The position numbers and the translations under genes are program-made. From Escherichia coli (GTDB taxonomy: Bacteria; Pseudomonadota; Gammaproteobacteria; Enterobacterales; Enterobacteriaceae), in NCBI RefSeq assembly GCF_003334355.1, contig NZ_QOWP01000011.1: DNA of 64,000 nucleotides. One strand, given 5' to 3'. The notes beneath the pieces were generated by a model, which saw only the letters and a list, made by a program, of their open reading frames with translations, was not told where the DNA came from and did no database searches. Positions 12,619 to 64,000 of the stretch are shown piece after piece (position 1 is the stretch's first letter; every line of letters begins with the position of its first letter).

Positions 12619-13515
12619 TCACTTAAGAGGAGCGGCACTATGTTTCACAGGATAACGGGTTTTTGATATCTTAACCGACCTCGGCCTTGATGGTCGGGGG
12701 CGTTTTGTTATGAACACCACTTCCAGAGCACCCCGAAGATGCTCCAGTCGTTTCGGGATGGTCCCTGGTGACGCCGTGTTTCCCAGCTCTATCATTTCTG
12801 ATGCGATATTCTTCCACGCAGGCAGTAGCCAGTGGCGGTTACAACCCTTCTGGTTCAGCGTCAGCAGCAGGTCTTCGCTGTAAAAAAGTTTATCAAACAA
12901 CGTAATAGAGTTATCCGGGATGGTGGCGAGCATGGAGTGGGCCAGCACAGTTTCGCTCTGCCGGTAAGGTGCGGTCACGGCATTCAGCAGAATGTGACTT
13001 CCCAGGTTCATTAAGGCCACCAGACGCATAACCGGGTAGGCGTTCTGCCGCTTAGTGGATGTGTTGGCAGACCCATAATATTCACGCAGCTCGGGTTTAT
13101 CAGGTGTCCTGAACTGTGCGCCATCAATGGCAAAAAGTTGCAGGCCGTGCCAGTCATCCTTCAAGTAACGTTCCGCGCCCCTGTCTGTGCGGTCTGGCGG
13201 AAGAGCCATTCCACTGGGGCGGCCCCCACGCGCTGACGCGCCTGGGTGACAGCGCTGCGGGCCAGCAGGTTCATCCCCGCTTCGCCATCCGCGCTCAGGT
13301 TCAGACGGCGAACAACATCGGTAATTGGCTCATTGCACCACCATCCAGATAACCATGTCCCCCGGTAAACGACGGCGGCGAACGGTCGCATGAGCAGAAA
13401 ACGTCAGGCAGTGTTGTATCCACTCGGTGGGAAGGTGTTCTGCAAATAGTTGTGCAGAGGGCGGAGGCATAAGCGGATGGTCACTGAAATCGAGCAGATC
13501 ATTGAGAAGTGGCAT
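12619..13515 (-). pseudogene. insZ: degenerate IS4-family-like (DDE) transposase remnant, frameshifted into three ORF fragments (annotated insZ in K-12, as far as I recall)
   Basis: Three consecutive minus-strand ORFs (13330..13515, 13161..13391, 12619..13209) in different frames read as one transposase-like protein; no flanking inverted repeats identified. Confidence 0.6.
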
Positions 13516-46327: not shown

Positions 46328-47377
46328 GTGGAATTGTTGTCTGAATATGGTTTGTTTTTGGCGAAAATCGTTACCGTTGTGCTAGCGATTGCGGCGATTG
46401 CCGCCATTATTGTCAATGTTGCTCAACGTAATAAACGCCAGCGTGGCGAGTTACGGGTCAACAATCTCAGCGAACAGTATAAGGAGATGAAAGAAGAACT
46501 GGCCGCGGCGCTGATGGACTCACATCAGCAAAAACAGTGGCACAAAGCGCAGAAGAAAAAGCATAAGCAAGAAGCGAAAGCAGCAAAAGCGAAAGCCAAA
46601 CTGGGAGAGGTGGCAACTGACAGTAAACCCCGCGTCTGGGTGCTGGATTTTAAAGGCAGCATGGACGCCCATGAAGTGAACTCGCTACGTGAAGAGATAA
46701 CGGCTGTACTCGCAGCATTCAAACCGCAGGATCAGGTTGTACTACGTCTGGAAAGCCCTGGTGGCATGGTGCATGGTTACGGGTTGGCGGCTTCGCAGCT
46801 GCAGCGTCTGCGTGATAAAAACATTCCTTTAACTGTTACGGTAGACAAAGTCGCTGCCAGCGGCGGTTACATGATGGCCTGTGTGGCGGACAAAATTGTT
46901 TCCGCACCGTTTGCTATTGTGGGTTCCATTGGGGTGGTGGCGCAAATGCCCAACTTTAACCGCTTCCTGAAAAGCAAAGATATTGATATCGAACTTCACA
47001 CCGCCGGGCAGTATAAGCGTACGCTGACCTTGCTGGGTGAAAATACCGAAGAAGGGCGGGAGAAATTCCGCGAAGAGCTGAACGAAACGCATCAGTTATT
47101 TAAAGATTTTGTGAAGCGTATGCGTCCGTCTCTGGATATTGAACAGGTGGCAACGGGTGAACACTGGTACGGACAACAGGCGGTAGAGAAAGGCCTGGTT
47201 GATGAAATCAACACCAGTGATGAAGTTATTCTTAGCCTGATGGAAGGCCGAGAAGTGGTCAATGTACGCTATATGCAGCGTAAACGACTCATTGACCGAT
47301 TCACCGGCAGCGCGGCAGAGAGCGCCGATCGATTGTTGTTACGCTGGTGGCAGCGGGGGCAAAAGCCATTGATGTAA
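46328..47377 (+). CDS. sohB: S49-family peptidase (periplasmic protease homologue)
   Basis: 349 aa; GTG start, N-terminal TM segment. Confidence 0.92.
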   Translation: MELLSEYGLFLAKIVTVVLAIAAIAAIIVNVAQRNKRQRGELRVNNLSEQYKEMKEELAAALMDSHQQKQWHKAQKKKHKQEAKAAKAKAKLGEVATDSKPRVWVLDFKGSMDAHEVNSLREEITAVLAAFKPQDQVVLRLESPGGMVHGYGLAASQLQRLRDKNIPLTVTVDKVAASGGYMMACVADKIVSAPFAIVGSIGVVAQMPNFNRFLKSKDIDIELHTAGQYKRTLTLLGENTEEGREKFREELNETHQLFKDFVKRMRPSLDIEQVATGEHWYGQQAVEKGLVDEINTSDEVILSLMEGREVVNVRYMQRKRLIDRFTGSAAESADRLLLRWWQRGQKPLM

Positions 47378-61751: not shown

Positions 61752-63737
61752 TTATGCGCGCTTCAGATAGCGTTTATACCAACGTTCGAAGGCGACGGCG
61801 GGCATCGGTTTGGCAAACAAAAATCCTTGCCGCTCATTGATCCCGTTCTTGGTTAAAAAAGCATCTTCCTTTGCACTCTCTACACCTTCGGCGATCACCT
61901 GAAGATTCAATGCCTGGGCCACAGCGACGATCGCCCGGACCAGTGACTGCGAGACAGGCTGTTTGTGAATATCTCGAACAAAACCCTGGTCAAGTTTGAT
62001 GGCATCGATCGGAAAGCGCGCCAGTTGCGAAAGTGAAGAGTAGCCGGTACCAAAATCGTCCAGATGCACTTGCGCACCTAGTTGGCTAAATTGTTGAATA
62101 ACAGACAGTGCCAGTTCATCATTCTCAATCAGACAACTCTCTGTCAGTTCAACATCTATTGGGCAGTATTCAAAATTCAGTTCCTGGAGAACCTGTTTCA
62201 GGGCGGTGAAAATGGTTTGATCGGCGAGCTGACGTGCAGAAATGTTTACCGCCACTCGCAGGTTAATGCCTTTATCCCGCCACTTCGCCACCTGGCGTAC
62301 GACATCGAGAATCACCCAACGGCCTAAAGGCACAATTAGCCCTGACTCTTCGGCGTAGGAAATGAAATCCAACGGTGGAATCAACCCACGTTCAGGTGAC
62401 TGCCAACGTACTAGTGCTTCCAGACTGCGCACTTCGCCACGCCAGGTGATTTTCGGTTGATAGTGAATAACCAACTGATCGTTTTCCAGTGCTTTACGCA
62501 AGTTGGTATCCAGCCAGAGATATTCAAATACCCGCTGATTCATTTCTGGAGTAAAAACGCAAAATTGTCCTCGTCCGCCTTCCTTCGCTGTGTACATTGC
62601 TGTGTCGGCGTGACGAATAATAGCCGCGCTGTCCGAACCATGTTCGGGAGAGAGTGCAATACCTACTGAACAGCTGGTATAAACTTCAATTAAACCAATA
62701 CGAAAGGGGAGGCGTAAGCGGGTCAAAATTCGTGATGCCATTGCTTCCAGCGCGCTTTGTGAGGTATTGGATGCCAGTACCAGAAACTCATCGCCACCTG
62801 GACGCGCCAACACCTGGTCATGTTCGAGACAGCTTAAAATAGCCAATGACACGTCGCGTAATAACTGGTCACCAAACAAATGCCCATAGGCGTCGTTGAC
62901 CTTTTTAAAATTATCCAAATCAAGATACACAACCCCAACTTTATTGTTATCTGCATGATTAATAGCGTGATCGATTAACTCCTGCATTGCGTTACGATTC
63001 GGCAGTCCGGTGATACTGTCGGTATTTGCCAGAATACGCAGTCGCTCCTGAGCGCGGCGCTCTTCGGTAATGTCGGTACCGGAACAGATTAAAAAAATCT
63101 CGTTTTTGCCACTGCCGCTGTGGACAAATTTATTGCGAAACAGAAACAGCCGCTGGCCTTTACGTGTTGGTATCCACAGTTCGACTTCATATGCATTGCC
63201 GCTTCGAAAAAATACACGGTTATTGCGCCTGGATGCCGCAGCTTCACGACGGCTCATAAACAGTTTAAACACGCTTTGCCCAATGACGTCGTGTTCTTTC
63301 AACCCTGTGTAATCTTCACATAAGCGATTGAAGCGTTGAATATTCCCCCGGCTGTCGAGAATGACTATTGCGGAATGTGCTTCAGAAACTACCTGCTCAG
63401 CAAAGGAAAGCCCGTGTGATAAATCACGAGCAACCGCCGGTGTGTCATGCCATGCAGACGCGTTGCCAGCCCATTCCCGTTTATTGATTTTTCGTCCTAC
63501 CAGATGCACAGAAAGATCGCTTTCATCGACGGTCAGACTCATCATCAGGCTGGAGGTGATGACCGTCATTTCCCTGATTCGAGCAGCCTGTTCGGCAGAT
63601 AACTGCAACATACGTTCAGGTTCTGTGGTTTCGGTGGTAGAAAAGCGCAAAACATCGCTGCTTTCCGTCAACCGCCAGTATGAATTGTGCGATCCGAGAA
63701 AGTTGTACAACGTTGTGGACTCCCTAACGGTTTTCAT
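61752..63737 (-). CDS. pdeR: cyclic-di-GMP phosphodiesterase (PAS-GGDEF-EAL)
   Basis: 661 aa; degenerate GGDEF region and EAL motif (EALVRW) in translation. Confidence 0.95.
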   Translation of the reverse strand: MKTVRESTTLYNFLGSHNSYWRLTESSDVLRFSTTETTEPERMLQLSAEQAARIREMTVITSSLMMSLTVDESDLSVHLVGRKINKREWAGNASAWHDTPAVARDLSHGLSFAEQVVSEAHSAIVILDSRGNIQRFNRLCEDYTGLKEHDVIGQSVFKLFMSRREAAASRRNNRVFFRSGNAYEVELWIPTRKGQRLFLFRNKFVHSGSGKNEIFLICSGTDITEERRAQERLRILANTDSITGLPNRNAMQELIDHAINHADNNKVGVVYLDLDNFKKVNDAYGHLFGDQLLRDVSLAILSCLEHDQVLARPGGDEFLVLASNTSQSALEAMASRILTRLRLPFRIGLIEVYTSCSVGIALSPEHGSDSAAIIRHADTAMYTAKEGGRGQFCVFTPEMNQRVFEYLWLDTNLRKALENDQLVIHYQPKITWRGEVRSLEALVRWQSPERGLIPPLDFISYAEESGLIVPLGRWVILDVVRQVAKWRDKGINLRVAVNISARQLADQTIFTALKQVLQELNFEYCPIDVELTESCLIENDELALSVIQQFSQLGAQVHLDDFGTGYSSLSQLARFPIDAIKLDQGFVRDIHKQPVSQSLVRAIVAVAQALNLQVIAEGVESAKEDAFLTKNGINERQGFLFAKPMPAVAFERWYKRYLKRA

Positions 63738-63869
63738 GATGCATATCCTCCGGTTAACAGCGGAGTCCGCGGTTAAATAAAAGGAACAACATGACTTACA
63801 TGAAATTAACGGCGGCTAAACGCATTGTTTTTTTTATATATTTATTTGTAATCCAGTTTTGGAAAAACG

Positions 63870-64000
63870 GGTAATGACTCCAACTTATTGATAGTGTTTT
63901 ATGTTCAGATAATGCCCGATGACTTTGTCATGCAGCTCCACCGATTTTGAGAACGACAGCGACTTCCGTCCCAGCCGTGCCAGGTGCTGCCTCAGATTCA
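63870..64000 (-). mobile_element. IS1 insertion sequence, terminal 131 bp (remainder beyond window end)
   Basis: GGTAATGACTCCAACTTATTGATAGTGTTTTATGTTCAGATAATGCCCGATGACTTTGTCATGCAGCTCCACCGATTTTGAGAACGACAGCGACTTCCGTCCCAGCCGTGCCAGGTGCTGCCTCAGATTCA is the reverse complement of the IS1 right end as I remember it, including the terminal inverted repeat. Confidence 0.93.
63885..64000 (-). CDS. insB: IS1 transposase InsB, C-terminal fragment (gene continues beyond window)
   Basis: Minus-strand reading ...[12 protein letters not shown] ending at the stop whose complement is TTA at 63885..63887, 15 bp inside the IS1 terminus. Confidence 0.85.

Follow-up and report, generated by a model that had tools for sequence, protein, structure and literature searches.

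An IS1 insertion between pdeR and rnb in a small lineage of Escherichia coli

The region considered here lies at the end of the window, by which we mean the whole 64,000-nucleotide stretch of Escherichia coli DNA that was analysed. It contains an intact pdeR gene (also named yciR or gmr), followed upstream of its start codon by a short segment of native DNA and then by the end of an insertion sequence that runs off the window. In the MG1655 annotation pdeR is followed by the oppositely oriented small open reading frame ymiB and by rnb, and no insertion sequence separates them, the absence of IS1 agreeing with what the initial annotation had stated of this reference strain. The features of the locus are collected in Table 1, together with the other IS1 insertions that were found in the same region of other strains.

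Table 1. Features at the pdeR end of the window, and IS1 insertions in the pdeR 5' region (positions of insertions are relative to the pdeR start codon)
Feature	Position	Strand or orientation	Basis or carrier
Intact pdeR (yciR/gmr), 661 aa	61752..63737	-	Open reading frame list; annotated in PSS-12 as an intact cyclic di-GMP phosphodiesterase
Retained native pdeR upstream DNA (5' UTR, -10 region, promoter spacer), 132 bp	63738..63869	-	Identical to MG1655
Truncated ymiB', 27 aa, MTYMKLTAAKRIVFFIYLFVIQFWKNG	63791..63874	+	Translations; MG1655 annotation
Candidate weak hybrid promoter: TTGGAG (63878-63883), 17-bp spacer, AAAACT (63855-63860)	63855..63883	-	Predicted
pdeR-proximal copy of the target duplication, GAAAAACG	63862..63869	.	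Second copy after the IRL end, past the window; read in PSS-12
IRR-proximal 131 bp of IS1 (IS1A-like)	63870..64000	-	131/131 to MG1655 IS1A
Transposase (insB') stop codon	63885-63887	-	PSS-12 annotation; coding sequence runs on past the window end
IS1 insertion	-132	Parallel to pdeR	Window allele; PSS-12
IS1 insertion	-142	Parallel to pdeR	At least 3 draft assemblies; 9-bp duplication CAGTTTTCA
IS1 insertion	-152	Parallel to pdeR	TUM1881
IS1 insertion, 5' UTR	-33	Antiparallel	1919D3
IS1 insertion, 5' UTR	-47	Antiparallel	AR_0369
IS1 insertion, 5' UTR	-61	Antiparallel	50EVAW
IS1 insertion, inside the pdeR coding sequence	about 92 nt from the ATG (+92)	Antiparallel	AB66; pdeR pseudogene

The nucleotides that close the window (63870-64000) match the IRR end of IS1A, as annotated in MG1655, at all 131 of 131 positions. 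They start with the right inverted repeat of the element, an imperfect 23-bp terminal repeat, GGTAATGACTCCAACTTATTGAT, matched exactly at 63870-63892, and no further IS1 sequence was found elsewhere in the 64-kb window. The initial annotation had taken these 131 bp for the right end of an IS1 lying some 130 bp upstream of the pdeR start, with insB oriented towards that gene, and all of this proved correct: the ATG of pdeR is separated from the IS1 tip by 132 bp (63738-63869), and insB' reads towards pdeR, since in strain PSS-12 the transposase coding sequence lies on the pdeR strand with its stop codon 15 bp inside the tip.

The other junction of the element lies past base 64000, and was read not in the window but in PSS-12, the nearest complete genome (about 99.98% identical), which differs from the window over 64 kb by 12 single-nucleotide polymorphisms and one change in the length of a tandem repeat (357 bp, 179-bp rtT repeat), so that the two are not the same genome; the PSS-12 transposase coordinates were mapped onto the window as window = L001 + 57499. 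There, a full IS1 of 768 bp is present with both inverted repeats (L001 6371-7138), rnb standing directly beyond it. This copy matches IS1A at 763 of 768 positions, with 5 differences; its insA and insB' frames are open, the A6C frameshift motif (AAAAAAC) is found at position 307, and RefSeq annotates it as an intact transposase with programmed frameshift. The 8-bp target duplication GAAAAACG flanks the element on both sides and is present as a single copy in MG1655. A full-length element with a duplication of 8-9 bp, which had been proposed as a check, is therefore what PSS-12 displays. Both flanks are, moreover, collinear with the MG1655 spacer, which together with the direct repeat identifies a simple insertion. 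All the defining features of IS1 that were tested are present, and the element looks like an active copy of the IS1A type. Compared with the IS1A of K-12 (IS1 family, 768 bp, insA/insB', programmed -1 frameshift), the PSS-12 copy shares the same features and differs by its location alone; the pdeR-rnb spacer of K-12 is free of IS1. RefSeq already annotates this insertion in PSS-12, and the event is of a kind already known.

How widespread is this allele? A megablast search with positions 63500-64000 of the window against 5,426 complete E. coli genomes recovered the pdeR/IS1 junction in two of them, PSS-12 (100% identical) and TUM1881 (96%, with an offset of 20 bp). An IS1 in this orientation at the pdeR locus is absent from the remaining 5,424 of the 5,426, MG1655 included, and the exact insertion site of the window is found in PSS-12 only. 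Judged on the adjacent 25 kb, the four genomes that resemble the window most closely after PSS-12 (MLI023K1, MLI023K2, PRO_A-1412-6M-A_ESBL and OW1E2) have an uninterrupted pdeR-rnb spacer. The suggestion that the insertion is strain-specific is borne out, for a lineage rather than a single strain, by this single site-matched genome amid uninterrupted relatives, and because the closest relatives of PSS-12 lack IS1 at pdeR we may consider the insertion as recent. The 27-aa open reading frame that is created by the junction was found on four contigs, corresponding to at least three separately deposited protein records, which indicates that a small lineage carries the allele; a scan of metagenome contigs for the exact junction gave no match. 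The insertion is thus recent and confined to a small lineage, made of PSS-12 and a few close relatives that include the source of the window. PSS-12 was isolated from human faeces in Ecuador. About 21 matches to IS1 ends are present in its chromosome, so that the strain is rich in IS1 (about 20 copies) and new insertions are unsurprising.

Several further observations were made on this lineage. The RefSeq protein numbers along the PSS-12 region are nearly consecutive (WP_087899385, 87, 88, 89 and 90), the last of the series being the IS1-truncated YmiB'; this suggests that another genome of the PSS-12 lineage, already carrying the insertion, had been deposited earlier, around 2017, and accession OWD72892.1 fits such a deposit. 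In PSS-12 an IS1203 element, of the IS3 family, splits yciW, which codes for a CMD-domain protein, into two pseudogene fragments (L001 9251-11691); this second element comes shortly after rnb, some 2.6 kb beyond the end of the window, so that the lineage has two insertion sequences within 5 kb. At the other side of the window, the tyrT/tyrV tRNA-Tyr genes are followed by 3.1 copies of the 179-bp rtT repeat (4895-5455), and the PSS-12 array is 357 bp (two units) shorter, reflecting either a real variation in copy number or the collapse of repeats in one of the assemblies. A frameshifted pseudogene of an IS4-family transposase, annotated in PSS-12 (930010-930906), is located between adhE and tdk at about 12619-13515 of the window.

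The first consequence that can be read at the junction concerns ymiB rather than pdeR. IS1 is inserted within ymiB, and the translations show that its product is reduced from 34 to 27 aa: the last codon and the stop (GGG TAA) of ymiB' run into the tip of IS1, which supplies the new stop. In the literature ymiB is a putative small protein, poorly expressed. Both this truncation and the position of the insertion at the edge of the pdeR -35 region, discussed below, had been overlooked by the initial annotation. YmiB fragments of 26-29 aa also occur in many draft assemblies (P0008, P0009, P0010, P0013), several of them at contig ends, and 15 contigs carry a 29-aa form whose last residues before the stop are NASF. 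The presence of such fragments in drafts suggests further insertions of IS elements in ymiB, possibly of the IS3 family.

To place the insertion with respect to the pdeR promoter, we relied on the description given in PMC3367168, itself secondary to the mapping of Cairrao et al. 2001. According to that paper, the mapped sigmaS-dependent yciR promoter carries CAAAACTG in its spacer, a sigmaS-like -10 element with a C at -13 is located 6 bp upstream of the proposed yciR -10 and is recognised by FliZ, and the FliZ footprint extends over the spacer, the -35 and DNA further upstream. The pdeR-rnb spacer contains CAAAACTG only once, at 63854-63861 (-124 to -117). With this motif in the promoter spacer and a distance of 16-18 bp between -35 and -10, the -35 element would fall between about -139 and -125, a span that includes the junction at -132. 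It follows that, as far as this secondary description of the position goes, IS1 appears to abut or enter the -35 region of the pdeR promoter in its published form, which depends on sigmaS and is repressed by FliZ. From about -132 upwards, IS1 sequence takes the place of the native DNA, which is displaced by 776 bp; the promoter spacer, the -10 element, the start site, the 5' UTR and the coding sequence remain as in the native allele. The displaced segment comprises the upstream part of the FliZ footprint, any read-through from rnb, and a start site that a high-throughput study placed inside rnb. On the far side of IS1 the terminator hairpin of rnb is intact, with its 11-bp stem and T tract, and this terminator stands between the distal gmr start site and pdeR even in the native allele.

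That distal site is the sole gmr start reported by Cho et al. 2014, in three conditions; it precedes the ATG by 307-308 nt and falls within the 3' end of rnb. It corresponds to L003 7050 (about 1347050 in MG1655), before the terminator of rnb, and disagrees with the proximal promoter that was used in the FliZ study. If the distal start were the main promoter, IS1 would separate it from pdeR and the effect could be large. ChIP-chip experiments of the same study have detected binding of both sigmaS and sigma70 over the pdeR-rnb spacer, the sigmaS region being centred close to the pdeR start, not inside rnb (PMC3923258). The supplementary data of Conway 2014, of Adams 2021 and of the ROSE study gave no pdeR start site, and a search of the last 9 kb against Rfam at gathering thresholds found no RNA family.

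The initial annotation had also raised the possibility of a hybrid promoter. When the IS1-bearing spacer was scanned with the standard consensus, one match was obtained, the pIRL promoter of IS1 itself, which points into the element from the rnb side; neither the pdeR-side junction nor the uninterrupted spacer of MG1655 gave a match. When the alleles with and without IS1 were compared by a lenient scan, only one new pairing was revealed at the junction, TTGGAG and AAAACT separated by 17 bp, while the native promoter-like pairs downstream of -132 were unchanged by the insertion and no TTG-containing hexamer was present at that spacing in the native allele. The outward TTGGAG lies 8 bp from the IRR tip. 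Each hexamer agrees with the sigma70 consensus at 3 of 6 positions; AAAACT agrees at 4 of 6 with the sigmaS-type TATACT, and has a C at -13. The new pairing would accordingly count as weak, and the junction does not seem to create a strong hybrid promoter. The flanks of the three antiparallel insertions located in the 5' UTR, inspected by eye, had no plausible -10 suitably spaced for TTGGCA, the stronger hexamer of the IRL end.

This situation may be compared with that of known IS1 hybrid promoters: bla in pBR322 (Prentki et al. 1986), afaA in ST131 (PMC8764528), acrEF and blaTEM-6. In these cases, as here, IS1 lies upstream and in the same direction as the gene, with an outward TTGG-type hexamer 8 bp from its tip, placed to act as a -35. 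In contrast to them, the candidate partner -10 provided at pdeR, AAAACT, is weak. The ST131 data (PMC8764528) are instructive: with IS1 in the same orientation, afaA was up by about 7 log2, osmB down by about 2 log2 and ugd unchanged, the outcome depending on a good -10 at the right distance from IS1. As the three outcomes differ, the orientation of IS1 does not predict its effect. Variation at pdeR between natural strains has a precedent in the YciR/PdeR variants of Cimdins et al. 2017 (PMC5635171); those variants are, however, amino-acid substitutions with measured phenotypes, whereas the IS1 at pdeR lies upstream of an intact coding sequence. PMC5635171 and PMC3715855 relate pdeR activity to the output of csgD and curli. 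IS1 in regulatory regions, hybrid promoters made with IS1 ends and natural PdeR variation have therefore all been described already.

The window allele is not the only interruption of this region. At least seven independent IS1 events were identified in the pdeR 5' region (Table 1), using a chimeric query with the opposite IS1 orientation, look-ups in clusters of YmiB variants and the contigs that encode them; the other insertions that could be read at both ends all had clean 8-9 bp duplications (5 of 5). Their orientation and position split perfectly, three parallel against four antiparallel, an arrangement that would arise by chance about once in 64 if orientations were random, though this was noticed post hoc on seven events. 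Other elements have also been caught there. In strain 17MR471, ISApl1, an IS30-family element associated with mcr-1, lies about 100 bp upstream of pdeR (L004, about 2931-4000), between the AT-rich -10 region and the 5' UTR. In TUM1881, an IS200C (L002 7215-7930) is located between IS1 and the rnb terminator, so that the spacer of this strain holds two different IS elements.

Recurrence must be set against what happens elsewhere. The pdeR-rnb spacer is disrupted, in the sense that a 335-bp query found no contiguous match, in 40 of 5,423 genomes. An identical survey of control spacers of the window gave 33 for cysB-topA, 12 for osmB-yciT and 3 for sohB-yciK, each out of 5,423, and pdeR-rnb did not stand out by more independent disruptions than comparable neutral spacers. 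The idea that it is an exceptional hotspot for insertion sequences, or under selection, finds no support in a comparison of 33, 12 and 3 with 40: it is not exceptional, because control spacers are disrupted at similar rates, pdeR-rnb being at the high end. The cysB-topA spacer (about 47050-47260 of the window; L009 16676-16884) is in its own right a place where interruptions or rearrangements are seen, in the 33 genomes just mentioned. The GC content of the pdeR-rnb spacer is 40%, and 20-34% around the insertion sites, for 49% in the window. IS1 is said to favour AT-rich targets (Zerbib et al. 1985). Insertions of IS1 or IS5 upstream of flhDC reportedly raise motility (Barker et al. 2004). The pdeR locus is similar in that a mobile element has entered the control region of a lifestyle regulator, recurring independently across strains; unlike at flhDC, where activation was shown by experiment and selection, recurrence at pdeR is no higher than at control spacers.

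Taking these data together, the account that we deem probable is that of a simple IS1 insertion in a small lineage, which keeps the core promoter of pdeR, has at most a modest effect and behaves as a near-neutral polymorphism. In one small lineage of E. coli, an IS1A-type element would have transposed into the pdeR-rnb spacer, which is rich in AT, so that past base 64000 one would meet 637 further bp of the element, then GAAAAACGCCAGTTTTC, and after it the terminator of rnb and that gene itself. The core promoter of pdeR would still drive its transcription, the expression level or the response to FliZ and sigmaS changing modestly at most, and the allele, recent and near-neutral, would be what one expects of a strain that holds about 20 copies of IS1. 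One may wonder whether the IS1 end could rather be a solo remnant, the mark of an IS1-mediated deletion or inversion, or an assembly join, as the window shows the left junction only and is not identical to PSS-12. This would be very surprising: PSS-12, the nearest genome, has the whole element with matching 8-bp repeats and rnb directly beyond, the junction-dependent open reading frame is present in at least three separately deposited protein records, and five other IS1 insertions nearby show clean duplications of 8-9 bp. The two findings against which the initial annotation had staked its reading, namely the same IS1 in the reference strain or a solo end lacking an element, are accordingly not what is seen, MG1655 having no IS1 at this place.

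The alternatives that deal with expression are each unlikely, yet deserve to be weighed in turn. The one that ranks next after a near-neutral insertion is a reduction of pdeR expression. A polar IS1 would isolate pdeR from the start site inside rnb and from transcripts that read through that gene, upstream activating DNA being lost or moved away by 776 bp, so that PdeR would fall and curli and the rdar biofilm would be de-repressed. The single gmr start of Cho et al. 2014, inside rnb at 307-308 nt upstream, argues in this direction, as do the osmB transcript of ST131, down about 4-fold with IS1 upstream in the same orientation (PMC8764528), and the link between natural variation of YciR activity and a semi-constitutive rdar biofilm (PMC5635171); other natural alleles clearly damage pdeR, in its coding sequence in AB66 or in its 5' UTR at -33, -47 and -61. 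Yet the strong rnb terminator already separates the distal start from pdeR in the native allele, the mapped proximal promoter elements are kept, and the centre of the sigmaS ChIP region is near the pdeR start, not inside rnb. A hybrid promoter made of TTGGAG-17-AAAACT, combined with partial loss of the FliZ operator, comes after it as a rather improbable explanation; pdeR would be turned on sooner or to a higher level, and the DgcM/MlrA-dependent expression of csgD and curli would drop. The geometry of this promoter is read directly from the sequence and was recovered by the lenient scan, which showed no hexamer with TTG so placed in the native allele; IS1 ends can donate an outward -35 (PMC8764528; Prentki et al. 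1986 via PMC9330008), and a FliZ-recognised sigmaS-like -10 with C(-13) lies within the yciR spacer (PMC3367168). This has to be balanced against hexamers that each match the sigma70 consensus at 3 of 6 positions and a standard scan that reports nothing at the junction; moreover, the same-orientation IS1 at -142 and -152 lack the TTGGAG/AAAACT pairing, so that recurrence lends no support to a hybrid promoter.

A more ambitious proposal would see in the pdeR 5' region a place where insertion sequences repeatedly adjust the trigger enzyme PdeR. Parallel insertions (-132, -142, -152) would rewire the sigmaS/FliZ-controlled promoter, the TTGGAG-17-CAAAACT hybrid of the window allele escaping part of the FliZ operator, while antiparallel ones (-33, -47, -61, +92) would silence the gene. 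Natural isolates would thereby gain heritable settings of high or low curli, and the split between orientation and position would reflect selection, not chance. We hold this to be distinctly improbable. Ranked as a whole, a near-neutral insertion of at most modest effect precedes, as the probable account, reduced expression, then the hybrid promoter, a remnant or artefact coming last as scarcely credible.

What this insertion means for the cell depends on the place of PdeR in the network of cyclic di-GMP. PdeR is the trigger phosphodiesterase that gates DgcM/MlrA-dependent transcription of csgD, so that a cis change in its expression could shift the strain between a curli biofilm and a planktonic way of life. 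Should IS1 alter the transcription of pdeR, this would be a further case of natural regulatory variation driven by insertion sequences in the c-di-GMP network, and the strain would provide a natural mutant to explore the role of the DNA upstream of the pdeR -35, including the upstream FliZ footprint. As it stands, we are dealing with a routine insertion polymorphism in an IS1-rich commensal lineage, which provides a strain marker and calls for caution in the annotation of ymiB.
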